Below are positions 1 to 13,804 of a stretch of DNA of 13,804 nt, piece by piece. Origin of the DNA: a virus. Lineage: Duplodnaviria; Heunggongvirae; Uroviricota; Caudoviricetes. Under the pieces are notes generated by a model that saw nothing but the letters and a program-made list of their open reading frames with translations, was not told the DNA's origin and made no database searches. Every line of letters begins with the position of its first letter. Within the stretch, counting starts at the first letter, position 1. The position numbers and the translations under genes were made by a program. The stretch covers positions 1 to 13,804 of the IMG/VR virus record IMGVR_UViG_2711768056_000004. The stretch is one strand, 5' to 3'.

Positions 1-14
1 TGCAGGGGACACCA
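1..14 (+). tRNA. argW: 3' terminal fragment of a tRNA-Arg gene (argW-like), truncated by the window start; presumed prophage attL core
   Basis: The window opens with TGCAGGGGACACCA, which reads as T-stem 3' half + acceptor 3' strand + discriminator + CCA. It matches my recollection of the 3' end of enterobacterial tRNA-Arg(CCU) argW, and a P4-type integrase follows directly, as in the argW-intS arrangement. Only 14 nt are visible, so the cloverleaf cannot be folded. Confidence 0.5.
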
Positions 15-175
15 TTTATCAGTTCGCTCCCATCCGTACCAGTCCGCAAAATCCCCTGAATATCAAGCCTTCCGTAGATTAACAGTTCGTAATGGTTCGC
101 GTCAGATCGTTGACAGCCGCACTCCATGACGGGTAAAAAGTGGATAAAATAATTTTACCCACCGGATTTTTACCC
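15..175. other. attL arm between the tRNA 3' end and int; candidate integrase arm-binding region
   Basis: Non-coding stretch directly after the tRNA CCA end and before int. Contains a direct repeat TTTTACCCA at 153..161 and 168..176 abutting the int ATG, and CAGTTCG at 22..28 and 93..99. The function of these repeats is inferred, not demonstrated. Confidence 0.35.
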
Positions 176-1333
176 ATGCTCACCGTTAAGCAGATTGAAG
201 CAGCAAGGCCGAAAGAAAAACCATACCGCCTTCTCGATGGTAATGGCCTGTACCTTTATGTCCCTGTATCCGGGAAAAAGGTATGGCAGCTTCGCTACAA
301 GATTGACGGTAAGGAGAAAATCCTGACCGTCGGAAAATATCCGCTTATGACTTTGCAAGAGGCAAGGGATAAAGCATGGACTGCGAGGAAAGACATCTCG
401 GTTGGCATCGATCCGGTAAAGGCGAAAAAGGCTTCGTCTAACAACAATTCCTTTAGTGCGATTTACAAGGAATGGTACGAGCACAAGAAGCAAGTCTGGT
501 CAGTAGGCTATGCAACTGAACTTGCCAAAATGTTTGATGACGACATTTTACCCATCATCGGCGGTCTTGAGATTCAGGATATTGAGCCGATGCAACTGTT
601 GGAAGTAATCCGCAGATTTGAAGATCGCGGTGCAATGGAGCGAGCCAACAAAGCCCGCAGAAGATGCGGCGAGGTTTTCCGTTACGCTATTGTCACTGGT
701 AGGGCTAAATATAACCCGGCACCTGACCTTGCTGACGCCATGAAGGGATACCGCAAGAAGAACTTCCCGTTTCTTCCTGCAGACCAGATCCCTGCATTCA
801 ACAAAGCACTGGCAACATTTTCAGGAAGTATCGTATCGCTCATTGCGACCAAAGTTTTACGCTACACAGCCCTAAGAACGAAAGAGCTTCGTTCCATGCT
901 ATGGAAGAACGTCGATTTTGAAAACAGGATTATCACCATCGACGCCAGTGTGATGAAAGGACGCAAAATTCATGTGGTTCCTATGTCAGACCAGGTGGTT
1001 GAACTTCTCACTACGCTAAGCTCAATCACCAAACCAGTATCAGAGTTTGTTTTTGCCGGGCGCAACGATAAGAAGAAGCCAATCTGCGAGAACGCGGTAC
1101 TGCTTGTGATCAAACAAATCGGCTATGAGGGTCTGGAAAGCGGTCACGGATTCAGGCATGAATTCAGCACGATTATGAACGAGCACGAATGGCCTGCTGA
1201 TGCTATTGAAGTGCAACTGGCACATGCCAACGGCGGATCTGTGCGTGGGATTTACAACCATGCTCAGTATCTCGATAAGCGCAGAGAAATGATGCAGTGG
1301 TGGGCGGACTGGCTTGATGAAAAGGTGGAGTGA
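176..1333 (+). CDS. int: Tyrosine site-specific integrase, P4 / IntS-like family
   Basis: 385-codon ORF from ATG 176; the ORF track's 397-aa version starts at an upstream in-frame GTG at 140. N-terminus MLTVKQIEAARPKEKPYRLLDGNGLYLYV...KKVWQLRYKIDGKEK...GKYP is the P4-integrase-type N-terminal domain. C-terminal part carries tyrosine-recombinase signature segments (ALRTKELR, HGFRHEF, RGIYNHAQY). Sits immediately downstream of a tRNA 3' end. No clear Shine-Dalgarno precedes either candidate start. Confidence 0.9.
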   Translation: MLTVKQIEAARPKEKPYRLLDGNGLYLYVPVSGKKVWQLRYKIDGKEKILTVGKYPLMTLQEARDKAWTARKDISVGIDPVKAKKASSNNNSFSAIYKEWYEHKKQVWSVGYATELAKMFDDDILPIIGGLEIQDIEPMQLLEVIRRFEDRGAMERANKARRRCGEVFRYAIVTGRAKYNPAPDLADAMKGYRKKNFPFLPADQIPAFNKALATFSGSIVSLIATKVLRYTALRTKELRSMLWKNVDFENRIITIDASVMKGRKIHVVPMSDQVVELLTTLSSITKPVSEFVFAGRNDKKKPICENAVLLVIKQIGYEGLESGHGFRHEFSTIMNEHEWPADAIEVQLAHANGGSVRGIYNHAQYLDKRREMMQWWADWLDEKVE

Positions 1334-1466
1334 TCGACCTTAACCACTATCGAATGTCACAAAGCCTTGTGTATCTCAGTTTTGTCTCATCAACCACAGC
1401 AAGTCATCGATCGATTGATGCTTGGATGATAGACTTCATGCCTTTGATTATTAGCTGATAGAAGAA
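1334..1466 (+). promoter_or_regulatory. int-gtrA intergenic region; presumed gtr operon promoter/regulatory region
   Basis: 133-bp non-coding gap upstream of gtrA containing a perfect 10-bp palindrome ATCGATCGAT (1406..1415) with an embedded GATC. No convincing sigma70 -35/-10 pair could be assigned by eye. Confidence 0.3.
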
Positions 1467-1829
1467 ATGTTAAAGCTATTTGCAAAGTACACCTCGATTG
1501 GTGTGCTGAACACACTTATACATTGGGTGGTTTTTGGTGTATGTATCTATGCCGCGCACACCAATCAGGCTCTTGCAAACTTCGCAGGTTTCGTTGTGGC
1601 TGTGAGCTTTAGCTTCTTCGCGAATGCAAAATTCACATTCAAAGCTTCGACTACAACGATGCGCTACATGTTATATGTAGGATTCATGGGAACACTGAGT
1701 GCTACTGTTGGATGGGCTGCCGATAAATGTGCACTTCCTCCAATTGTCACTCTTGTCACCTTCTCCGCCATCAGCCTAGTGTGCGGTTTCGTCTATTCAA
1801 AGTTCATTGTCTTTAGGGATGCGAAATGA
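1467..1829 (+). CDS. gtrA: GtrA-family bactoprenol-linked glucose translocase (flippase), O-antigen glucosylation
   Basis: 120-aa small hydrophobic protein with four predicted TM segments ([73 protein letters not shown]). Size and sequence are typical of GtrA. Stop overlaps the gtrB start (ATGA at 1826..1829). Confidence 0.9.
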
Positions 1830-2755
1830 AGATATCTCTGGTCGTTCCTGTCTTCAACGAAGAGGAAGCGATACCTATTTTTTATAAAACGGTACGTGAA
1901 TTCGAAGAGTTGAAGCCATATGAAGTGGAAATTGTTTTTATAAATGATGGTAGCAAAGACGCTACGGAGTCAATCATTAACGCTCTGTCCGTTTCAGATC
2001 CTCTAGTTGTTCCGCTGTCATTTACACGAAACTTTGGTAAAGAACCAGCCCTGTTTGCAGGGCTTGATAATGCAACCGGGGAAGCGGTCATTCCAATTGA
2101 TGTTGATCTGCAAGACCCTATCAATGTCATCCCTCACCTCATTCAAAAATGGCAGGATGGCGCTGATATGGTTCTGGCTAAGAGAACAGACCGATCTACC
2201 GATGGAAGGCTAAAGCGCAAATCGGCTGAGTGGTTCTATAAGCTACACAACAAGATTAGCAACCCAAAAATCGAAGAGAACGTGGGTGATTTTCGCCTGA
2301 TGTCGCGAGAAGTTGTTGAAAACATTAAATTGCTTCCTGAGCGCAATCTTTTCATGAAAGGCGTCTTGTCATGGGTTGGCGGTAAAATTGATGTTGTTGA
2401 GTATGCAAGAGCTGAACGCGTTGCCGGCAACTCAAAATTCAATGGGTGGAAGCTATGGAATCTGGCACTGGAAGGCATAACAAGCTTCTCAACTTTCCCA
2501 TTGCGCATGTGGACATACATCGGACTTGCTGTCGCCAGCCTGTCATTCATTTATGGCGCGTGGATGATTTTAGATAAGATTCTTTTCGGTAATAGTGTTC
2601 CTGGATACCCGTCACTGTTGGTTTCCATACTTTTCCTTGGCGGCATTCAATTGATTGGGATTGGTGTCCTTGGTGAATACATTGGACGCATATACATAGA
2701 AACCAAAAAAAGACCAAAGTACATACTAAAGAAAGGTGAAAATAGGAATGTTTAA
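1826..2755 (+). CDS. gtrB: GtrB-family bactoprenol (undecaprenyl-phosphate) glucosyltransferase, GT2
   Basis: 309 aa. N-terminal GT-A/GT2 catalytic domain ([23 protein letters not shown]-type motif [10 protein letters not shown]) followed by two C-terminal TM helices ([21 protein letters not shown]; [25 protein letters not shown]). Translationally coupled to gtrA. Confidence 0.92.
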
Positions 2756-4163
2756 TTCTAAATATTTTTACATACCATTATCAATTATATTTATATTTTG
2801 TTACCCAATAGTGTCTGCTGATGTCCTTTATAGGGATGATGTGGCAAGGTCTGTATATTCATTTTCTGCATGGGGAGGGCTTGGTAGGCCACTTTCTGAT
2901 TTTGTAATGCATATTTTTTCTCTTAATTTTGATTTATTACCAAGCGCTGCTCCTCTTCCGTTGTTCTTTGGTATATTCATTGCATCAGCAATAATTTATT
3001 ATATTTGTAATTATCTTGTTGAAAAAGAAGACTCTCTGCAGATATCCATTATGCTCACAATCATTTTTGTGAGTCCATTGTTTATACAAAACGTGTCTTT
3101 TCAATTTGACGCATTAACGATGATTTTAGCAAATTCATTATGTATGCTGTCATTCTTTGTATTTGACATTAGATCATTTCCAAAGTCATTATTATCCATT
3201 GTTTCTTTATTTTCATGCTTAAGCTTATACCAGCCTTGCGCAAACATATTTATATCATTAATTGCATACAATGCTTTATTTGGTAATGGGAAAAACAAAT
3301 CATATCATCTTGCACTGACATTCGTAGTAACATATGCATTATATTATGTCACTATGTTTTATATAATGAAATATGGTGCTGACAATAGATCTATAATGGT
3401 GTCATTCGCAGACATACCATCATCTCTTTATGAATCTATTAATAAGACTTTTAAATATATAGAACCCATTGGGATATCTTTTTTGATTCCTGTTTACATT
3501 GGATTGTTATCCTATTTTGTTTGTTATGTTAAAAAGGTCAAACATCAGTTATCCCTAGGGTTTTTAGAGTGCTCATCCAATTTATTATCACCATTAGCGC
3601 TATTATTAGCATTGCCTGGACCAGCATTTTTATTAAAGGAAGGGATTACAGATATAAGGGTTCTATCAGGCGCGTCAGCATCCATAGCGATAGTTATTTT
3701 TTCCATATATAAATTATTCGGAAAAAAATCTTTTTATTTTATTTCTGTAGTAATGTTGTTTATCACCATAACCACTTCATTCCAATTTTCAAATGCCATA
3801 AAAGAGCAAAGGAAATATGAGGAATTTGTCATGGAGATGGTGGCTAATGATTTGGGAAGGCTTGACTTTAACGGCGAGGTATACACTTATGGAAGGATAT
3901 ACGACTCTCCTATTACTTGGAAAATGATTGAGGCAACACCGTTCCTCAAATTTGTGTATAGCCCTGCTGTACCATGGATTGCTGTATCAATGATGCAGCA
4001 ATTAAGTGTTAAGAATTTGGCACCATGGATAAAAACAGTACAAGTTAACAAGTTAAATGAGGTTTGTGAAAAAAAATCATCACCAATAATAAAAACAAGA
4101 TATTATAATGTATTTAAAATTGGTGAAGATATTATCGTCGTGTATGGCGATAGAGTTTGTTAA
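2748..4163 (+). CDS. gtrC: Serotype-specific O-antigen glucosyltransferase (third gene of gtr operon, GtrC / Gtr-type); polytopic membrane protein, specificity undetermined
   Basis: 471 aa from ATG 2748, with AAGGTGA 8 nt upstream; the ORF track starts at in-frame GTG 2736. Overlaps the gtrB 3' end. Highly hydrophobic multi-pass protein with a less hydrophobic C-terminal ~100 aa. Strongly AT-rich compared with gtrB and the late genes, as is typical for the horizontally exchanged type-specific gtr gene. Confidence 0.8.
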
Positions 4164-4173
4164 AATTAAAAAA

Positions 4174-4198
4174 GGCCCAAAACATCGGGCCATTTTTT
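4174..4198. terminator. Bidirectional rho-independent terminator between the convergent gtr operon and tailspike gene
   Basis: Hairpin GGCCC (4174..4178), 8-nt loop, GGGCC (4187..4191), flanked by an A-run (4168..4173) and a T-run (4193..4198). Lies 11 nt after the gtrC stop and overlaps the tailspike stop codon. Confidence 0.7.
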
Positions 4199-6065
4199 AT
4201 GTGTAGTTAGCAATAAGTCTGCAAAACCATTGAGTGCCGCCGTTTATTGTTGAAAGCCTAAATACCTGCGTTCCTGAAAATGAAAGCGACGGTGTATTTG
4301 ATGCAAGTTTAACGTTAGACCCGAATGTTATTGTTTTTGATGCCGCCGAATAAACAGCTAATGTAACTTCTACATACCCAGTTAACGCATTTGACAATGC
4401 TGCTGGGGTTATTGTTACATCGCCAGTTACCGTTGCTGACACATACGCTGCATTAGAAAAGTCAGGCGCATACGATGCACCGGGGGTGTCAAATTTCGGA
4501 GACGCTACAAGCAGGGGAACACCTACGCTTCTCCTAAAAATTGTGCTATTGCTAAACATATCGTACTCTATCCCAACAAAGTTCTTAGCTGCCAGGATGT
4601 TTGTAAACGACTGGTCTATAGAGTAAATATGGTTTATCAACCTTGCTGTCCATGCTGGTGAGTTTGAGTTTCCACACTCAACAAATGAGCAGTTAACGCT
4701 ACCAACGGCAAACGGCATTAATGATGCAGTGTAAGAAGACAGTCCCGCAGCATTGAATGCATTCATATTCACGAATGTCTGACATTGAGAAAACGTATTA
4801 CCCGATGCTCCCGAATCGACAAAGAAACCAATACCGCCGTTAATATAACCATCTACCGAATCTAAATTAGCCTTCGTGTAGTCCCATTTTGACGGAGAGT
4901 CTGCAAAGCATTGGTTGAATGAGTTGTTTATCGAGTTTTGCACAACAAAGCAACACTTCATTCTTGAGTTTTGGTCAGCTACCGAGTCGTCATACATACC
5001 CCAGTTATGTACTTTATCGATACGATTGTTACCGCCACCCCTCACCCACGTCCCAAATCGGAAATAACGACCTTCACCCATGCTTACCTGATGGTCGCTG
5101 CCTTCAATAATATGGGCTTGACTTAGGGGGTTCGTAGGTTTTAATACACCTACCGCGTAAAACTTCATGAGATGAACACCCATGCCGCCAGCGATATGAA
5201 TGCCATGACCATCAACGTTGGCTACGTAAATACCATCTAACTTGTTGGCATAACCATCAGATATTTTAAATCCATTAACAGTCTTTGCGCGGGCGTCAAT
5301 TAAAAGATTGCTAATGTGCCCAGCGTATTGATTACCTGTTCCTTTATCGCATTTAACAGCATACCCAGAAGAATCCGCTATGAAGTCATCCGTGAGATAT
5401 ACCCCTCCAAATTCTGCATCTATGCTTACATCACCGTAAACATGTAATGTTGTGTTTATGGGGTATTTCTTTCCATTTAATCTGACAACTTTGCATACAG
5501 TATTTGGTTGTATCCAGTCTGGATGACCAGCAGCAGTGCTTGGGGAGTGCTCTAGCCCGGTTAAAGATGCGGCATAATCAATCGCATCCTGTAATGTTGT
5601 ATACATATCAGGATTGACGAATATAACATTTTTTAGCGTACCCCCAACCGTATCATCTGCGTAATCAACTGATTTATCGAATCCAACTAATCCAGCGCCA
5701 TTGCTCCCTTCAAGCTGTTGCCTTAACTGATCTGGGTCGTATTTTGCAATGTCAGGGAAGTAGAACTGCTGCGATCCATAGGCGTCGTAAACAGCCATGC
5801 TGTAATTCTGCACAGTAACGAACTTTGATATCTGCCCGTTGTAAACAGGATACCCACCCGCGTTAATGACTATCGGCTGAGCAGTTGGAATCAGATCTCC
5901 AGTTTCACTTTCAATATAAACAGGGATTTGGTTCGCTGGGATTGTAGGATCGGTATCTGGTAGCCCAAGATAGATTTTACCGTTGGCATTTGCTTTAAAT
6001 GAGCGTGCCAGCGTGAAAAGCTGCGAAGGCATCCCTACCACTAAGTTTGCGGTGATATCTGACAT
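4197..6065 (-). CDS. Tailspike protein (P22 gp9-like N-terminal head-binding domain fused to a divergent receptor-binding/O-antigen-depolymerase domain)
   Basis: 622 aa from the ATG at 6065, which has GGAG 7 nt upstream on the - strand. N-terminus [52 protein letters not shown]...VINAGG..VYNGQ...YDPDQ closely matches the remembered P22 tailspike head-binding domain. The remaining ~500 aa show no resemblance to the P22 catalytic domain. The ORF track's 638-aa version adds 16 codons that I consider non-coding. Confidence 0.88.
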
Positions 6066-6153
6066 TTCATTGCTCCAGACGAATGATATGATGCAACCAT
6101 GATGTGATTGCATACAGAAATGGTACTATTGAGTATTTATCCAGTAGGTTACG
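6066..6153. promoter_or_regulatory. Divergent tailspike / mnt intergenic control region with candidate operator
   Basis: 88-bp gap between divergent starts. Inverted repeat ATGCAA (6091..6096) - N11 - TTGCAT (6108..6113), plus direct repeat TGATnTGAT at 6083..6091 and 6101..6109. Positioned like the P22 immI Pant/Pmnt operator region, but operator identity is inferred. Confidence 0.4.
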
Positions 6154-6453
6154 ATGCCATTCCACCCAACTGGTGAGGCATCAAGGATGTACAGCAAATA
6201 CGACGAGGCGCAGTTTCACTTGAGACTTCCGCATGAACTCCACGAGAAAATTAAACAGCGTGCGAAGATGAATAACAGGTCGCTGAACTCAGAGATAATT
6301 GCAGCGATTGAAGAATCATTGAATAAACAAAGCTCTGCATCAGTTTGCATTGACGATGCAGATCGTATGGCAGAACAACAATCTGATATGGTTAAGAAAA
6401 TGGTTTTTGAAACGCTTAAGACCATGTATAGCAATAATAAAAAGGAAACATAG
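6154..6453 (+). CDS. mnt: Mnt-like ribbon-helix-helix (Arc/MetJ family) transcriptional repressor
   Basis: Translation FHLRLPHELHEKIKQRAKMNNRSLNSEIIAAIEESL...DADRMAEQQSDMVKKMVFETLKTMY aligns along its length with remembered P22 Mnt (FNFRMPMEVREKLKFRAEANGRSMNSELLQIVQDAL...DAERLADEQSELVKKMVFDTLKDLY). Start is ambiguous: ATG 6154 gives 99 aa, ATG 6187 gives 88 aa, closer to the 83-aa Mnt. Confidence 0.8.
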   Translation: MPFHPTGEASRMYSKYDEAQFHLRLPHELHEKIKQRAKMNNRSLNSEIIAAIEESLNKQSSASVCIDDADRMAEQQSDMVKKMVFETLKTMYSNNKKET

Positions 6454-6523
6454 AAATCTAGTTTCCGGCTAAAATGGCATTGCTTTCATGATATCCTGTG
6501 AAAAACTAAGGAGAGTTAACCAT

Positions 6524-7009
6524 ATGAAAAAATCACTGTTAATTATCCCGCTTCTGCTGGTTGGATGCGCAAAAGTAAGTGACTATCAAGCAAGTTGCGA
6601 ACAACGCTATCAAAAGCTTAGCGATATGGCTAATTGCCTTGATGCCAGAGTGAAGAACGACTCACGCATGGCATCAGCACCAACACCTAAGCTATATGTC
6701 CTTGCTGCAAAGATGCTCGGGCAAGGTGTCGATGAAGGCAAGATAAGTGACGCACAGGCAAGACTTGAGCTTCAGAATCTTTATGTTCAATTACAAAGCC
6801 AAGAACAAGCCCAACAAATAGCACAAAGCCAAGCATTCCAGCAGGCTTTATTGAATTATCAGGCTGTAAACACAATGCAAGCGATCGAGCAAAAAGCGCG
6901 CCAGCCTGTTATAACTCAACCTTACCCAACGCGTGTTGACACCTATACAAACTGCAATTCAGGATTTGGAAATACCGTCACATGCAACAGTAGCAGCAAC
7001 ATTAGATAA
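6524..7009 (+). CDS. Predicted lipoprotein with Q-rich coiled-coil-like segment and Cys/Asn/Ser-rich C-terminus; function unknown (moron; candidate superinfection-exclusion factor)
   Basis: 161 aa from ATG 6524, with AAGGAG at 6508..6513. The ORF track's upstream start at 6488 adds 12 residues before the signal peptide. MKKSLLIIPLLLVGC is a signal peptide with a lipobox (LVGC). Followed by a Q/A-rich stretch (LQNLYVQLQSQEQAQQIAQSQAFQQALLNYQ) and tail TYTNCNSGFGNTVTCNSSSNIR. Co-oriented 70 bp downstream of mnt. Confidence 0.6.
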   Translation: MKKSLLIIPLLLVGCAKVSDYQASCEQRYQKLSDMANCLDARVKNDSRMASAPTPKLYVLAAKMLGQGVDEGKISDAQARLELQNLYVQLQSQEQAQQIAQSQAFQQALLNYQAVNTMQAIEQKARQPVITQPYPTRVDTYTNCNSGFGNTVTCNSSSNIR

Positions 7010-7011
7010 AG

Positions 7012-9126
7012 CTATTCATATTCATTCATACCGCTTAACGAGGCGACAATACCAGCTCTCGACAAGCGATTGAATTCATCGCTACCAATAGCATCGCGTA
7101 TTGCTTTTACGGCGGCCTTATTTGCCATAAATCTGCGTTCCGCCGCCGCTAATGCTTCTTTGCTTCCGCCTGCTCTTACTGCTTTGGTGGCTTCCTGAAC
7201 AGCTTTCTCTATCGCATATCGACCACTACGTGTGGTGGCAATTTTAGATACAGCGCCTTTTAACCCAGCGCCAACTAAAGCACCCGCGGCAGCGCCTGCA
7301 ATACCCCCTCCAGCGCCACCAACAATGGCACCTGATGTTGAGTTGGCAATTGCATTTAACACTGTTGATGTGACGTTGGATAAACCAGCATCCAGATCGC
7401 GTAGTACATTGGCAGTTCTCCCTGTTCTTTCAATATACTGCTGAGGTTTCACTGCCGCTCTTGCAAGAGTGCCATATGCATCAGCAATTCTTCCAAGTTC
7501 TGAGGAATATCTGCTAATGGCTTTTACATTTTGTGGGGTAAGTATCCCTGCGATATGGTTAATTCCTGCTGCATCAGATTTGCCACCACGTACACCATGC
7601 GAGATAGCATCCTGCAACATTGATGATATAGCAGGAACACGCTCTGATTCTGGCAGCGCGCGGATCATAGAATGGAATCCAGCAGGACCATTAAGACCTT
7701 TAGCTGACGATGATTGAAGAGATTTTACTCCATTCGTAATCAGTGCATCTGTTGCCAAATCACGCCCAAAAACAGACTCTGCACTCTCTTGTGCGGATAG
7801 CCTCGCTTTAGACAGATCATTAGCTTTTTGCCAGTCATCAAAAAATCCGCCGTTTTCCGCCATTGTGCGCATATCATCAGTAATTGCCCGACGTATTTCC
7901 CCTGCTCTCCTTGCCGCATTTGCCTCTCCACTACGCTTATATTTTTGCTCCGCATCAGCAAATTTCGCTCTCCATGCTTTCATGCCATCAAATGTTACTC
8001 CACCTTGATTGTTTGCCTGAACAAACTGTTTCATTTCAGGAGTAAGCGGTATGCCAGCAGATCGCTCTGCCTGAATAACGGCATTACCATTTAGCATTCT
8101 TGCTTTTTGATTTGGCATTGTTGACCGCACGTCATCCCATGCCGCGCGCTCAGCATCCTTCATCTGATCAAGATTTTGAAGAATCCTTTGTTTTATAGCC
8201 GCACTTTTTTCTGATGCCGTTCCAGATGCGGCCCCAAATTCATCAAGGTTTCGACTTAACTTTGATGATATTTCGTTAAATGCTGCCTGATGGGCATCCT
8301 GAACAATCCCTGGTGTTGATGCCAATGCGCCTTCGGCTTGTGCAATTCCACGACTTCCAGATCGCATTCCTGGTGTTAATGCGTTTATATCAATTCCAGC
8401 AGACTCAGCCGCTTTTGCTACATCTTCGGACACATTAGCGGCCTGACTGGCAATTGACTGACGCCCAGCACCTGACTTTGCCATCCTGGAAACATCATTA
8501 GCAGAATTCAGTGCTGCACCACCAAGAGCCTGTGAAACCCTTGGCGCAATAACGCGCCCGACACCTGAAAGAACGCCTTGAGCACCAATATTGATACCAC
8601 CGTTAATGGCAGCATTTTGTGCAAAATCACCCTCCTGATTTGCAGCATCAGCAAGAGAACCGGCAATCATGTTTCCTGCGGAACCGATGTCTCCTGCGAG
8701 CTTTGCTGGCGCTCCAGCAGCTTTTGCTGCTGTGCCAATTGGCAGGAGATACCCACCAATTGTTTCACCGGCTTGCGCGTAAGGGTCTGTCGGTCGATCG
8801 ACTGGACGATAGACATCATCCAAAACCTTGGGGCCACCAAGCCCATGGCTGATTGCATTAATCAGACTTGCGCCACCCTGCAATACGTCAAATGGTATGT
8901 TTACCAGACCACGGCCAGCCTGTTCTGCAATTTGCCCTGCGCTTTGACCACCAGTGAGCCAGTCAGTGGCTTTTCCTACCAGAGATTGTTCTTCTGGCTG
9001 CGATTGGTTTTGAGTGGATTGATCACCAGAAGACAGCATCTGAGCAATGCGACGTGCTCCCTCAGTATCGCCGGCAGCATCAGCATTTCTTAACGCCGTC
9101 ATCAACTGTTCGCGACTATAGGCCAT
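7012..9126 (-). CDS. Ejection (DNA-transfer / E) protein, P22 gp16-like by position
   Basis: 704-aa ORF, last gene of the late block before the immI-like cassette, in the position of P22 gene 16. Low-complexity Gly/Ala-rich hydrophobic segment near the C-terminus ([27 protein letters not shown]). Start overlaps the upstream gene stop as TAATG. Assignment rests mainly on synteny and size. Confidence 0.65.
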
Positions 9127-10400
9127 TACTGCCCTCCGAGATATTTATTAATCAGGTCATCATCAGAAAGCTGCTGTTGAGACGGTTGTATGTCCTTCCC
9201 GTATTTCTGTTGCATACGTTTCTGAGCCATCTCAGTGGTTTTTATGATTGTTTTGATAGCTGCTCTGGCTGATTTTTCAGACTGATTTGGGGACAAACTA
9301 CCAATAGCATCCATTACCTTTTGCCCCTCGGCATTACTTAAAGCCCCCATCCCTTTCATCTGCTGAATGCCAGATAAGAATCCCTGAGATTTCAGTGTGT
9401 CAACCAGAGTTTCTGTATCAGCAGCCTCTGTTCCTGGAATGAATCTACTCGATAGTGGGTTTAGGTTTGTTCCGAAATATCCCGTGAATCCTGGGCTATT
9501 AAGAACTTTTGTAGCCGTCTCTATCGTTCTGGAAAGATTATCCATTCCAGAGTTGTACGCATCAGCCTTATCTCGCTTTGCCTGCTCCATAGCTTGCTGA
9601 TTCTGCAATCTCTTGTCCTGCAATTCAGCAAGTTTTAAGGCATTAGTTTCATTTGCGATGAGTCTGTCGTATTTCTTGTCCTCTAATTCCATTCGACGAA
9701 GATTGACATTTTGTTGCGCAATATTGTTGCTTGCCCACCCTCTGGCATTTGTCATGTCATTATTGCGGATTGTTTCGTTAATTCTTTGCTGCTCCTGCTG
9801 GCGACCAACCATCTTATCCTGATAATCCAGCATTTTATCCGGACCAACAGCCCCTAGCGTCATAGTAGTCAGCATGTGTGATAGCTGCTCTGGATTCTGG
9901 ATGCCTGTCTGAATCATCCAGTCAGCATTCGCACCCACGCGATTTAACCTGTCCTTGTTGTCAGTAATGAATTTACTGTAGGCTTCCGGTCCCTGAGAAA
10001 GAGCGACGTTAGCCCTCATGGCTAAATCGCCCATATCGTTGCGTTGCTGCTCATTAAGACCGGAAAACGCCTGTTGTGCCTGCGCAACAAACGCTGGATT
10101 TTCCTGGGCAAACTTAAAGAGTCCCGATGGATCACCAGAAGCCCATGCATCAGCGTGAACCTTATTGAACGCACTAATAGCTTTCTGTTGCTGTTCCTGA
10201 TTGTAAATATCAGCAACTCCAGCCAGACCACGTAACGCGGTCAGACCAACGTTATTTGCACCTGAGCGAGCCAGTTCATTGTTTTCGCGGATCAGACCAA
10301 GCGTTGCGTTAATGTCGCTTGCCTTTGGCGCATTCTCATTTTGCGTACCGATGCCAGCCAGAAAACCACCAGAATTAATACCCTGTTGCCACGTAGCCAT
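9126..10400 (-). CDS. Ejection (DNA-transfer / E) protein, P22 gp20-like by position
   Basis: 424-aa Q/N-rich ORF between the gp7-like and gp16-like genes, in the position of P22 gene 20. Assignment by synteny and size. Confidence 0.65.
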
Positions 10401-10410
10401 TGATTACCCC

Positions 10411-11103
10411 TTAAAACAACGAGCCAAGCAGACCAAGACCGCCGCCGATCGCAGCCCCCCACGGAGTTGATGAACCAATTAATTTCGCAAGTCCGGCCCC
10501 AGCAATAGCACCAGACGCACCTCCGCCAATAGCAGATTGCATTGCTGATGGTCTGTTGGCATTTGCCGCTGCAAGAGCCGCACTTTGCTGCGAAATCTGA
10601 CTCATGTTGTTGGCATATGTCTGCCCGGCGTTTGCCTGACCTTGCAGTGCGCCAAGACCAATATTTGCCAGATTCTGGTAGTTGTTCATCTGACCAGATA
10701 GCCATTGCTGACCAAGCGTTGGTGCGATTGTTGCTAACTGATTACTGGTTGCTGTGGAACCTAATCCACCCGTTGCTTCCGCTGCCGCCAGACTCTGATA
10801 GCGAGCCTGACCAGCAAGATCTTTGTACTGCTGAGAGTTGTAATACTGGTTAAGTGCCTGACCTTGCCCTTCCAGAGACGATAAGTTCTCGAGGCTGCCG
10901 ACATACTTATCAGCCAGAGGAGTAAACGGCTTAAGGTTGTTCATGATGGTGTTGAACTGCTGATTTTGCAGGTCTGCGGCATACTTCTGAGCTTCTGCTG
11001 CATACTTTGCGCTTTTATCAGAGCTACCACCTTTCCCGCCTTTTTCAGGGCACCAAGGTTCCTCGCCGCGCAGTTTTCTGCCCAGCTTAAATGCATATAA
11101 CAT
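10411..11103 (-). CDS. Ejection (DNA-transfer / E) protein, P22 gp7-like
   Basis: 230 aa. N-terminus MLYAFKLGRKLRGEEP, then a Q/N-rich body and a Gly-rich hydrophobic C-terminus (AIGGGASGAIAGAGLAKLIGSSTPWGAAIGGGLGLLGSLF). Size and position between gene-14-like and gene-20-like genes match P22 gp7. Confidence 0.72.
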   Translation of the reverse strand: MLYAFKLGRKLRGEEPWCPEKGGKGGSSDKSAKYAAEAQKYAADLQNQQFNTIMNNLKPFTPLADKYVGSLENLSSLEGQGQALNQYYNSQQYKDLAGQARYQSLAAAEATGGLGSTATSNQLATIAPTLGQQWLSGQMNNYQNLANIGLGALQGQANAGQTYANNMSQISQQSAALAAANANRPSAMQSAIGGGASGAIAGAGLAKLIGSSTPWGAAIGGGLGLLGSLF

Positions 11104-11105
11104 GG

Positions 11106-11561
11106 CTATCTCCTGTGATTCAGGAAGTCGATTAGTTCTTCGCGTGTGGCGCTGTAAAACGTCACGTCATCCACGCCTTTGAAGTATTTCTTGATGGTTC
11201 CTACACGCTTAAGGCCAATCATTGCGCAGTACATCTGCCCGTGGCGGAATTTGCGTGCAGCAAATGATGTGACGCACTGAACGGTGGTGTTAGTCAGAAT
11301 GTATCGCCAGAACGCCAGCCCGATTTCCTTGCTGAAGCCGCGAATCTCTGGCAGGTACATGGCGTGGCAATCGAATGTAAGCGGCTGAATCTCCTGATAG
11401 TAAACAATGCCGCCGAACTGCCCGTGCACGTTCACCTCAAAGTAACGGCAATCAGGTTTGTAGTCGTATCCATCACCGTTGTTGCTCCCGGCAATAATGT
11501 CAGGGTGATTTCCGACTGCTTCGATCAGGTCGATGTTTCGCGTTGGTTTGAACTGAATCAT
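11106..11561 (-). CDS. Virion assembly/ejection-associated protein, P22 gp14-like by position
   Basis: 151-aa ORF between the tail-needle and gp7-like genes. Start overlaps the needle gene stop (TAATG). Assignment by synteny only. Confidence 0.6.
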   Translation of the reverse strand: MIQFKPTRNIDLIEAVGNHPDIIAGSNNGDGYDYKPDCRYFEVNVHGQFGGIVYYQEIQPLTFDCHAMYLPEIRGFSKEIGLAFWRYILTNTTVQCVTSFAARKFRHGQMYCAMIGLKRVGTIKKYFKGVDDVTFYSATREELIDFLNHRR

Positions 11562-12409
11562 TACTGCTCCGCGATTATCTTGATGGTTGTGGCAGTAAAC
11601 GCCGCACCATTTGACTGAATGGTTAACGTGCTGCCATTTGTGGCAAGAAAGCCGTCTTTATCCACGCTGAAGAACGTAGCTAACAGGATGTTGTCGGTTG
11701 TTGTCGCCGCATTACGACTGCTTACCAGTGTGTCAGGAACAGAGCCGGAAAATGTTAGTTGCATTGACCTGTTGGCGGTTCCACTGGGCCACGTCCCGAC
11801 GATCGACAGCTTGAAGAACAAGGTTTTGTTCTCGTTGAACACAACCATCTTGTTGTTAGCAGTGTCGAAGAATGGTGCCAACGTCCCGGATGACGGCGTG
11901 AGCGTTTTCAGCAGGCTAACAAGGTTGGTCGGCGCTGTCGGGATGGTTACTGATACGCCAGAGTAAACAACCTCTGACTTCTTGCGCGTAGTGGTATACT
12001 CCAGAGCATCGATGCGCGTTTCATGGTCTGAAAACTGCGACTCCAGCGACTGAACTCTGGTATCAAGCGACGCAATATCGCTTTCATTCTGAGCGATTCG
12101 CGTTTCATGTTCCTGAAGAGTTGATTCTGCCTGGCTGATTCGCTCCTCATGATTAACAAGCGTTGCTTCCGCAGCAGAAATTCGCTGCTCATGGTCAGCG
12201 AGAATCACATCCTGCTCATCGTTCCTGACTTGTGCGTCATAAGCGCCCTGTCCGGCCTCGTTGGCCTTGTTAGCCACATTACCAACATCAGTACCCTGTG
12301 CAATAACGTACAGCAGATATGACTGCGAGAAGATATTGCGTGGAAGGATTGATGTATCGAGCCGCGTCGCCTGAACAATAACAGGTGTATTGAGATTCGA
12401 ATCCGCCAT
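11561..12409 (-). CDS. Tail needle (plug) protein, P22 gp26-like N-terminal domain and coiled coil with an extended C-terminal domain
   Basis: 282 aa. N-terminus [68 protein letters not shown] matches remembered P22 gp26. Followed by heptad-like repeats ([66 protein letters not shown]) and a ~140-aa non-coiled-coil C-terminal domain. Confidence 0.9.
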
Positions 12410-13803
12410 TACTCAATCCTTATCTGGCAGCCAGACAGAGTGACAGGTGACTTCGTGATAACGCGCAATTTGAAGCCGACATTTTTCCTGATTCGCCCGA
12501 CACGCTTCCACAAAACGCGTTTGTCGTAAACGAACGGTTCATTCTGCTCAATCATCTGCTCACGCCCGTAATTGATGCCGTCAGTGGTTGCAGAGAGAAA
12601 AAGGCGGTCAGCATACTGCGCAACGCCAGTTGAAGATTCAACTTCAAGGTCGAAAACTCTGGCGTTATCTGCTTTGAACAACGGAGTAAACAGCAGGTGT
12701 TCCTGCTGCTTGTCGTACTGGCTGCTGATATCGAACTGCAATTTCCCGGTCACGGATTCCAGCTTATCGCCGCACGTTATCTGATTGCCTTCGTAAATGA
12801 AGTCGATAGCGCGGTACACATCGTCATACAAGCCAGTTTTCAGTACGCACCATTGCGGACCATTGGCGCTTGAAGATGCGTCGTAAACGAGAACATGGCG
12901 CGCAAGATGGATAATCAGCAGCTCATGCGCATCAAATCGCAGAGACTCCATCACACCATCAGCCAGTTCATCAGCAGTGTAGGAGCGGAGAATTTTCTCA
13001 ATGCTCGCGCTGGCGATTGGTGACACCTGACCGGAGCCGATGATGTATACAGACGGCGCACCCGTTGCCGGATTGCTGATGAACGCATACGAATCAGCGA
13101 ATGGCGTTTTGCAGTAAGTCCCGGCAATGCCTTTCTGCACCATCAGTGATGGCTGTGCGACATACAAAGCAGCACCAACGGTGGTTGCACCAGTCAGGGA
13201 GAAATATTCAATCGTCGATGAACCAAAGCAGACGATGAAGTCTCGCCATGTACCTATGCCGATGATGCCGTCCGGCTGTGATTCTGCGCGGTATTGTGCG
13301 CTGTAACGGTCAGGATGCGATTCGTCTTCAAGGTCAGTGATAAACCATGAATCCGTGCCGTCTTTTGACCACGCATAACGCCCACGTAAGCGTGTAATGT
13401 CGCGGACTGAACCTAACTCATACTGAGTGAATCCACTGTCTGTAGGCCAGTTTGAGACGGTTTTAACCGTACCATCATAGCGATACTCGACCAGTTGACC
13501 ATTAACGCCTACCGCCTGTGATGTCCGACCATGCGCCATTGATACGCGACCACTTCCGGCAACATCGCCGACTTCACTTTCTCCTTTGTAGAGCTTGCCA
13601 CCACACACGCGATAAACAGCACTCTGCGCCATGTTGTACTCAACTCCGCGCGATACACCGTTCACATCAGAACGTTTGGCAATGCCCGGGAATGAGCGAA
13701 GATATCCGCTGCTGTTCAGGATTTCTTTGGGTGTAGCCAACATATTCGCTGGCAGATAGTCGATATAGTCGGCGTTTCGGAAATCTTTGCCGACACCTTT
13801 CAT
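12409..13803 (-). CDS. Tail accessory / head-completion protein, P22 gp10-like; 5' end at or just beyond the window edge
   Basis: 464 codons read from the ATG at 13801..13803 to the stop at 12409; the reading frame runs to the window edge. Lies immediately upstream of, and translationally coupled to, the needle gene as in P22 (10 then 26). The true start may be a few codons upstream outside the window. Confidence 0.78.
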
Positions 13804-13804
13804 A

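Follow-up and report, generated by a model that had tools for sequence, protein, structure and literature searches.

It is well established that each serogroup has its own third gene in the phage-borne gtr operons for O-antigen conversion and that these operons recombine (PMC7685785; PMC3688519), and the shuffling of gtr genes has already been documented in Salmonella (PMC3688519). The Salmonella GtrC proteins form families with more than 96% identity within a family and less than 46% similarity between families, and the GtrC protein of phage P22, which transfers glucose onto the galactose of the O-antigen and so produces factor O:1, represents family I of Davies et al. 2013 (PMC3688519). For Escherichia coli, many glucose side branches have been ascribed to gtr genes located outside the O-antigen cluster, and few of these have been matched to a particular modification (PMC7685785). 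Here we describe gtrC, the third gene of a gtrABC operon in a 13,804-nucleotide (nt) stretch of Caudoviricetes DNA (IMG/VR record IMGVR_UViG_2711768056_000004, positions 1 to 13,804; hereinafter, the window). We consider it probable that this open reading frame (ORF) encodes the acceptor-specific glucosyltransferase of a prophage O-antigen conversion operon, with the O153-type O-antigen of the host as the likely acceptor and exclusion of related phages as the likely benefit.

A new member of the GtrII/P22 GtrC family

The GtrC protein belongs to the Pfam family PF14264 (Glucos_trans_II; score 77.9 bits, with the cut-off at 30, covering positions 5-313 of the 317 in the model), the members of which include GtrII of the Shigella flexneri phage SfII and P22 GtrC but not GtrV, GtrIV, GtrI or epsilon34 GtrC, and it is matched over its full length by the 'GtrC-like' O-antigen conversion family PHROG 4829 (E 4.6e-39, positions 6-478 of 485). 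Together with the GT-C fold considered below, these memberships sustain the proposal of a first-pass annotation, made from the letters of the DNA alone, that the ORF is a type-specific gtr gene, the third in its gtrABC operon. The cassette indeed has the expected composition: a small membrane protein of the GtrA family is encoded first (1467-1829), a conserved family GT2 glycosyltransferase, GtrB, second, and a protein with some 10-11 hydrophobic helices third, directly after gtrB and close to the phage integrase gene (int) and attachment site (att). The GtrB protein is 87-93% identical to those of epsilon34, SfI, SfII, SfV, SfIV and P22, in line with the annotated conservation of gtrA and gtrB.

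The limits of the gtrC ORF, from the ATG at 2748 to the TAA stop at 4161-4163 (471 amino acids, aa), had been annotated exactly. A longer version starting at a GTG codon at 2736 (475 aa) was dropped because the homologues begin with M-F/L/I-N/K-S-K and the near-identical copies in RefSeq are 1416 nt long. In the order int-gtrA-gtrB-gtrC, the gene overlaps amount to 4 nt and 8 nt, the latter between gtrB and gtrC (ATGTTTAA); AAAGGTGA sits just before the gtrC start, and a terminator follows the gene.

How distinct is this protein? The first-pass annotation argued from its length, which did not seem to fit those of known type proteins. The sizes that it quoted were right for GtrV (417 aa) and K-12 YfdI (443 aa), but the comparison set was incomplete, given that GtrII has 486 aa, P22 GtrC 485, GtrI 506 and epsilon34 GtrC 551. 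In an exhaustive hidden Markov model search of 1.84 billion representatives (a word-indexed profile search had added few homologues), we found 2914 family representatives, mostly 470-520 aa long, of which 1198 had E values of 1e-30 or better; the best 150 nearly all fall between 450 and 530 aa. Because the median length in 160 aligned members is 490 aa, a protein of 471 aa is ordinary and its length is uninformative on novelty.

Sequence identity is more telling. When GtrC was compared by BLASTP with P22 GtrC, GtrI, GtrII, GtrIV, GtrV, epsilon34 GtrC and YfdI (GtrX and GtrIc were left out of this set), the best match was P22 GtrC, with 25% identity over residues 11-464, and nothing significant was detected against the other six. 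Thus, GtrC falls below 96% identity to every characterised type protein compared, and, at 25% identity to P22 GtrC, far below the Salmonella yardstick of more than 96%, it has to be considered a separate family. Neither of the two observations that would have spoken against the first-pass reading, near-identity to a characterised type protein or a uniform GC content of the operon, was made. Only four clusters of relatives with more than 30% identity were recovered from 5.8 billion proteins, at 62%, 55%, 50% and 50% (P0002-P0005); one is a metagenome sequence, one comes from Proteus mirabilis, one represents a second E. coli type, that of strain F1005 (P0004), and one is from a Logan assembly. 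The collection of phage genomes contained no sequenced phage with this gtrC, the best match being Hafnia phage Pocitis76 at 25%, no NCBIfam model matched GtrC or the adjacent tailspike, and the literature yielded no paper characterising this GtrC. Judging from these comparisons, GtrC is a new, functionally uncharacterised member of the large GtrII/P22 GtrC family of GT-C enzymes, within a system that is itself well known.

P22 GtrC shares with GtrC the membership in PF14264 and PHROG 4829, alignability over the full length (485 against 471 aa), GC content (0.319 against 0.318) and all of 20 key conserved positions checked, with the exception of Y28F; in its own P22-like prophage, the gene occupies the same place, with the tailspike gene convergent to it and a terminator at the end. 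Nevertheless, the two proteins are only 25% identical, and the O-antigens of the two hosts are unrelated, so the acceptor and the linkage must differ. SfII GtrII, the namesake of PF14264, is likewise encoded in an int-gtrA-gtrB-gtr(type) layout next to a tRNA att site, and the gtrAB DNA of SfII is about 82% identical to that of the window up to the last gtrB codons, but the type proteins are far apart (BLASTP E 7.5; about 14% identity in the family alignment, with several conserved positions different), and SfII has a myovirus-type tail instead of a tailspike.

Eighteen positions that are at least 90% conserved in 163 diverse family members are all retained in GtrC (D30, D31, R34, W42, G46, R47, P48, P69, P110, N115, D121, M125, Y161, Q162, Y199, R304, Q354 and G382), and the candidates for the active site among them (D30, D31, R34, R47, D121, Y161, Q162 and R304) are 97-100% conserved. 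D30 and D31, conserved in 99% and 98% of the members, respectively, lie directly after the first transmembrane helix (TM1; residues 5-24), in the first extracytoplasmic loop, which the topology would place on the periplasmic side. In GT-C enzymes such as Pmt, PglB and ArnT, the catalytic acidic residues come right after TM1, and the acidic pair of GtrC resembles the Asp-Glu motif of the Pmts.

The AlphaFold2 model of GtrC, obtained from 15 homologues, is predicted with confidence (pLDDT 90.4, pTM 0.89), and its multi-helix membrane core can be superimposed on known GT-C structures. In a Foldseek search with this model, GT-C enzymes ranked first, albeit without significance, and a sequence search of the PDB gave no match at E up to 1. 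Like Pmt1/2/4, AftA/AftB, STT3/PglB/AglB, ALG3/6/9/12, PimE and ArnT, GtrC appears to carry a soluble domain at its C-terminus that faces away from the cytoplasm, whereas its sequence identity to these enzymes is only 6-11% and it is smaller. From the helices of the model, hydropathy and the positive-inside rule, we infer about 11 membrane helices, a cytoplasmic N-terminus and an outward-facing C-terminal domain (about 376-471); with this topology, the conserved polar residues would fall on periplasmic loops. The sugar donor is probably linked to polyprenyl phosphate, considering that the adjacent GtrB and GtrA would make and flip undecaprenyl-phosphate-glucose (Und-P-glucose). An acetyltransferase, like the BTP1-type GtrC of Salmonella, was rejected as an identity for this protein in view of the Pfam family and the GT-C fold.

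Exchange of the third gene between gtrAB operons

The distribution of sequence identity along the operon reveals where gtrC was joined to gtrAB. DNA homology of about 82% to the operons of SfI, SfII, SfV and SfIV extends from 1364 to 2715-2744, that to epsilon34 ends at 2710 and that to P22 at 2731, such that all these end points fall within the last 45 nt of gtrB. In E. coli F1005 (NZ_OY754353.1; L021 5001-9561), identity to the window is complete (100%) between about 2267 and about 2775, a stretch that covers the last 500 nt or so of gtrB and the first 27 nt or so of gtrC; beyond this clean crossover point, gtrC has the same length but its protein is only 49% identical. The F1005 protein also has 471 aa, the same N-terminus and the 8-nt overlap with gtrB; neither it nor any of the other three relatives (49-62% identical) has been characterised. 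Furthermore, in ten loci that carry the gtrC of the window, this gene is 98.4-100% identical while gtrA varies between 76% and 100% and gtrB between 87% and 100%, and we therefore conclude that the same cassette is found on different gtrAB backgrounds. Of 5426 complete E. coli genomes, 689 contain gtrAB-like DNA and four contain this gtrC. An old acquaintance, the intS-yfdG-yfdH-yfdI region of the K-12 cryptic prophage CPS-53 (KpLE1), makes the same point: its integrase is 99% identical over 385 aa, it occupies the same argW site next to yfdC, it has the three-gene layout with gtrAB DNA 84% identical, and yet its third gene is a different one, YfdI (443 aa) showing no detectable similarity to GtrC.

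On this evidence, gtrC is a self-contained cassette that homologous recombination moves from one related gtrAB operon to another, with a single crossover falling within the conserved 3' end of gtrB. By its sequence, the locus is otherwise a textbook gtr cassette, and the exchange is a confirmation in E. coli of what has been documented in Salmonella rather than a new principle.

Could such shuffling have left gtrC as a decaying, non-functional remnant, either a moron maintained without selection or a gene mismatched with its gtrA and gtrB? Premature stops and deletions are known in some Salmonella gtr genes (PMC3688519), and the gtrA alleles next to this gtrC do diverge down to 76% identity. 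However, the ORF is intact in all loci examined, and exactly the same protein is encoded in 148 blocks of public assemblies; the terminator and the overlap between gtrB and gtrC have been kept, along with the near-invariant family residues. Moreover, comparison with the two most divergent alleles, in a set that differs by 0.7-1.6% in DNA, gives a pN/pS of about 0.12, so gtrC evolves under purifying selection. A remnant is therefore extremely improbable, and gtrC is, as far as its sequence tells, the intact, selected, uncharacterised third gene of a standard gtrABC conversion cassette.

The low GC content is a property of the functional class

The first-pass annotation drew attention to the markedly lower GC content of the third gene, and the windowed analysis bears this out: gtrC has 0.318, compared with 0.446 for gtrA, 0.429 for gtrB, 0.432 for the tailspike gene, 0.476 for int and 0.482 for the rest of the window, and GC at third codon positions (GC3) drops from 0.47 in gtrA and 0.43 in gtrB to 0.27. 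In a 300-nt profile, the fall begins at about 2550-2750, the minimum of the entire 13.8-kb window (0.29) is reached inside gtrC at 3001-3450, and recovery follows after about 4200.

Does this step mark a fresh, one-off insertion of a gene recently imported from an AT-rich donor? The sharpness of the GC and GC3 change at the gtrB/gtrC boundary is compatible with such an event, as are the 55-62%-identical relatives from a metagenome and Proteus mirabilis. However, a GC content of 0.318-0.334 is common to the type genes of epsilon34, SfI, SfII, SfV, SfIV and P22, whose gtrAB neighbours are at 0.42-0.45, the 49%-identical gene of F1005 has 0.321, and the O-antigen glycosyltransferase, wzy and wzx genes of the host are themselves at 0.26-0.35. 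Because all six phage type genes are equally low, the low GC is better viewed as a long-standing property of the functional class than as a time stamp, and recent import is very unlikely. Thus, the cassette exchange that the first-pass annotation read from the composition break is real, but it is the identity breakpoints that demonstrate it; the GC break is no evidence of a recent swap.

The likely acceptor: an O153-type O-antigen

So which polysaccharide would GtrC modify? The four complete genomes that carry this gtrC (TST3, CFSAN061763, CFSAN061768 and MLI106K1) all possess the same wzy gene, complete or partial, which is found in only 80 of the 5426 E. coli genomes (1.5%), and the 80 include strain 2011C-4315, serotyped O153:H2. 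The genome of F1005, with its different gtrC, also has an O153-type wzy. On the strength of this genomic co-occurrence, the O153-type O-antigen of the host is the likely acceptor.

Several findings weigh against this assignment, and against the proposed function more generally. The four carriers may represent only two or three lineages, considering that the CFSAN pair are near-duplicates and that MLI106K1 has near-identical coordinates, and conversely only 3-4 of the 80 genomes with the O153 wzy have this gtrC; thin as it is, the association with the host wzy is suggestive. In TST3, the galF-gnd O-antigen cluster is gone, with the insertion sequence IS1 in its place (wcaM-IS1-gnd; L018 19187-20206), and only a partial wzy persists, about 650 kb away. 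No characterised GtrC relative exceeds 30% identity, and the sugar, the acceptor and the linkage are those that we infer from the sequence context. Two of the Salmonella GtrC families cause no detectable O-antigen modification (PMC3688519). The receptor-binding domain of the linked tailspike resembles TSP3 of phage AV101, which is experimentally O153-specific, only distantly (26% over 183 aa). Finally, a simple scan of the region upstream of gtrA (1364..1466) found no match to the sigma-70 consensus.

Some of these points could also be explained by an active GtrC that modifies something else, be it a capsule (K-antigen), the enterobacterial common antigen, the core of the lipopolysaccharide or another O-antigen, in which case the link with wzy would reflect clonal sampling of a few related genomes. 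That gtrABC is intact in TST3 (gtrC 99.3% identical) despite the replacement of its O-antigen cluster fits this explanation, as does the wzx gene of MLI106K1, which is annotated as truncated. Also, some tailspike subtypes span several serogroups and may target capsules, although the tailspikes of Lederbergvirus generally track the O-serogroup of the host (PMC10408124). Other considerations speak against it. All four carriers share a wzy that is rare in the species, and the IS1-mediated loss of the TST3 cluster may post-date lysogeny. To our knowledge, all functionally assigned members of the GtrC family (SfII GtrII and P22 GtrC) act on the O-antigen. A different acceptor thus appears improbable, and we retain the O153-type O-antigen as the likely one. 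It should be added that IS1 adjoins gnd in MLI106K1 as well (L017 17144-19533), and with genes lost or truncated in both hosts, some carriers of the prophage may be rough.

The O-antigen cluster of MLI106K1 consists of gnu upstream of galF, three glycosyltransferase genes, a gene for a 588-aa HAD-like protein, wzy and wzx; it lacks genes for sugar-nucleotide synthesis, rml included. The 588-aa protein (L017 12367-14133) is labelled either 'HAD superfamily hydrolase' or 'glycosyl transferase', depending on the source, and has no significant Pfam match. O153 and O178 are reported in a review to have one glycosyltransferase fewer than expected and to contain a ribofuranose of unexplained origin; the 588-aa protein may be a candidate ribofuranosyl transferase.

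The naming of the cluster calls for caution, too. The literature disagrees on whether its name should follow Iguchi's 'O153' (99.9% identical to O178) or DebRoy's, and our use of the serogroup name carries this conflict. The papers on the MLI106 and CFSAN strains provided no serotype. Host serogroup O101/O162 was rejected because the ABC-transporter pathway is used there. Strain SMS-3-5 has the same wzy (100%; NC_010498.1, 1046934-1048100) as the O153:H2 strain 2011C-4315 and is listed in the literature as O19:H34. Because O19 contains rhamnose and the cluster has no rml genes, we did not use this label and relied on 2011C-4315; SMS-3-5 may present a discrepancy between serotype and genotype.

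Linkage of gtrC with a tailspike receptor-binding domain

In most loci examined, this gtrC lies next to the same tailspike receptor-binding domain, which is 84-100% identical in DNA across the loci. The tailspike of the window (622 aa from its true start, in agreement with the matches to the N-termini of the Sf6 and P22 tailspikes in the PDB, which begin at residue 17) joins this domain to a P22-type head-binding anchor, and a sequence search of the PDB matched the N-terminal head-binding domain only. In TST3, the same receptor-binding part (87% identical in aa; L001:13450-15366) is mounted on another anchor, Pfam Tail_spike_N of the TSP1/Gp66 type, and adjoins a siphovirus-type tail with TipJ and tape-measure genes, gtrABC still being attached. 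An 83%-identical (aa) receptor-binding domain is present in tailspikes of Kuttervirus myophages (H110-H113), which have several tailspikes with no assigned receptor. The domain has accordingly been observed on three anchors: P22 head-binding, Tail_spike_N and the Kuttervirus tailspike. Because gtrABC is attached beyond the 3' end of the domain in both prophages, gtrABC and the receptor-binding domain seem to be one mobile module. The gtrC of F1005 is paired with another tailspike, which is 42% identical in the N-terminal part only, so that a single O-genotype harbours at least two gtrC/tailspike combinations.

The pairing fits a generally accepted notion, namely that the prophage modifies the receptor of its own tailspike, which has been raised as a caveat in a study of tailspikes (PMC10408124). 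The similarity to AV101 TSP3 being distant, the O153 O-antigen is at most a putative receptor of this tailspike.

The mechanism of Gtr systems has been summarised previously (PMC7685785), and the following scenario appears to accommodate the features of the locus in the simplest fashion. GtrB would make Und-P-glucose at the cytoplasmic face of the inner membrane, and GtrA would flip it to the periplasmic face. GtrC, with D30 and D31 in the first periplasmic loop and other periplasm-facing residues, would then move the glucose onto one O-antigen sugar, before or during the ligation of the chain to lipid A-core; the acceptor would most likely be the host O153-type O-antigen. The modified O-antigen would escape binding or cleavage by the adjacent tailspike, so that superinfection by sister phages would be excluded and the antigenic type changed, and the gtrC cassette would travel together with the receptor-binding domain of the tailspike.

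Regulation and prophage context

The gtr operon of P22 is controlled by a switch that comprises four GATC sites in two pairs and three overlapping OxyR half-sites, all in the roughly 115 bp that precede the transcription start (PMC2909390). The window lacks such a region: the int-gtrA interval has just two GATC sites, at 1332 and 1409, 77 nt apart, and DNA homology to P22 first appears at the ATG of gtrA, the region upstream resembling that of the Shigella phages instead. With two GATC sites only and P22 homology confined in this manner, phase variation by the Dam/OxyR mechanism is unlikely, and the P22-like type, with its four-GATC signature, was rejected.

The window covers the end of a P22-like prophage (Lederbergvirus, similar to Sf6, HK620 and CUS-3) on which the integrase gene lies, with the gene order int, gtrA, gtrB, gtrC, convergent tailspike, Arc/Mnt-like repressor and small lipoprotein; the genes for ejection proteins, tail needle and tail hub lie farther on, on the minus strand (Table 1). 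The first gtr gene, annotated GtrA/yfdG in identical loci, starts 134 nt from the integrase gene, for which argW is the att site, and the same prophage is found beside tRNA-Arg/yfdC in MLI106K1. The terminator between gtrC and the tailspike gene was detected on both strands (fold of -17.1 kcal/mol, z = -3.4).

Table 1. Features of the gtr operon and its surroundings in the window
Feature	Position	Strand	Remarks
Integrase, IntS-type for the argW site	176..1333	+	True start M13 of the 140-1333 ORF; Pfam Phage_integrase and arm-binding domains
Conserved leader/regulatory region upstream of gtrA	1364..1466	+	DNA homology of about 82% with the gtr loci of SfI, SfII, SfV and SfIV, starting at 1364
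gtrA, proposed Und-P-glucose flippase	1467..1829	+	120 aa; Pfam PF04138 GtrA_DPMS_TM, E 2e-13
gtrB, bactoprenol (Und-P) glucosyltransferase	1826..2755	+	309 aa; GT2, Pfam PF00535
Recombination junction, end of inter-operon homology	2745..2775	.	Homology stops at 2710-2744; F1005 diverges after about 2775
gtrC / gtr(type)	2748..4163	+	471-aa membrane glycosyltransferase, GT-C fold; about 11 predicted TM helices and C-terminal soluble domain (about 376-471)
Bidirectional intrinsic terminator	4174..4191	.	Between convergent gtrC and tailspike; GGCCC-loop-GGGCC stem flanked by A-run and T-run
Tailspike, receptor-binding (C-terminal) part	4197..5684	-	Beside this gtrC in most loci examined
Tailspike, P22-type head-binding (anchor) domain	5685..6065	-	Pfam PF09008, E 3e-56; true start M17 of a 638-aa ORF

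In other assemblies, the prophage with this gtrC occupies the bioA/ybhB-ybhC site or carries other integrases (compared stretches: window 176-1333; L022 1191-2348). The variety of sites and integrases implies that more than one integration module has been joined to the gtr-tailspike end.

Between the tailspike and the ejection genes, next to the Arc/Mnt-like repressor gene (6154-6453, +), lies a gene for a 173-aa predicted lipoprotein (6488-7009, +) with a signal peptide, an LLVGC lipobox and a Gln-rich middle part. It matches PHROG 6067, in which no function is assigned, and has no Pfam match. P22 presumably has immI/sieA in the corresponding place, and the lipoprotein is possibly a superinfection-exclusion protein.

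Implications

A broader, and distinctly tentative, scenario can be envisaged, for which the odds are rather against than in favour. Under this scenario, GtrC and its 49-62%-identical relatives would form a small clade, spread over E. coli, Proteus mirabilis and metagenomes, that adds an undescribed glucose branch to O153 and would thereby define an O153 subtype outside the serotyping schemes. The gtrC gene and the receptor-binding domain, the latter also represented in Kuttervirus, would be a co-transferred module of receptor recognition plus receptor masking that has been transferred among prophages of the podovirus and siphovirus types, and the different gtrC/tailspike pairs on O153 might represent alternative states of an arms race.

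Glucosylation of O-antigen side branches alters the serotype, recognition by antibodies and susceptibility to phages, and gtrC provides a concrete candidate through which the O153 O-antigen could be modified. Serogroup O153 is encountered among Shiga toxin-producing E. coli and E. coli with extended-spectrum beta-lactamases, and candidate phages for therapy, AV101 among them, are directed against it. If active, GtrC would account for differences between strains in sensitivity to tailspikes and phages inside one genotype-defined serogroup, and it would be relevant to in-silico serotyping, which reads only wzx and wzy.

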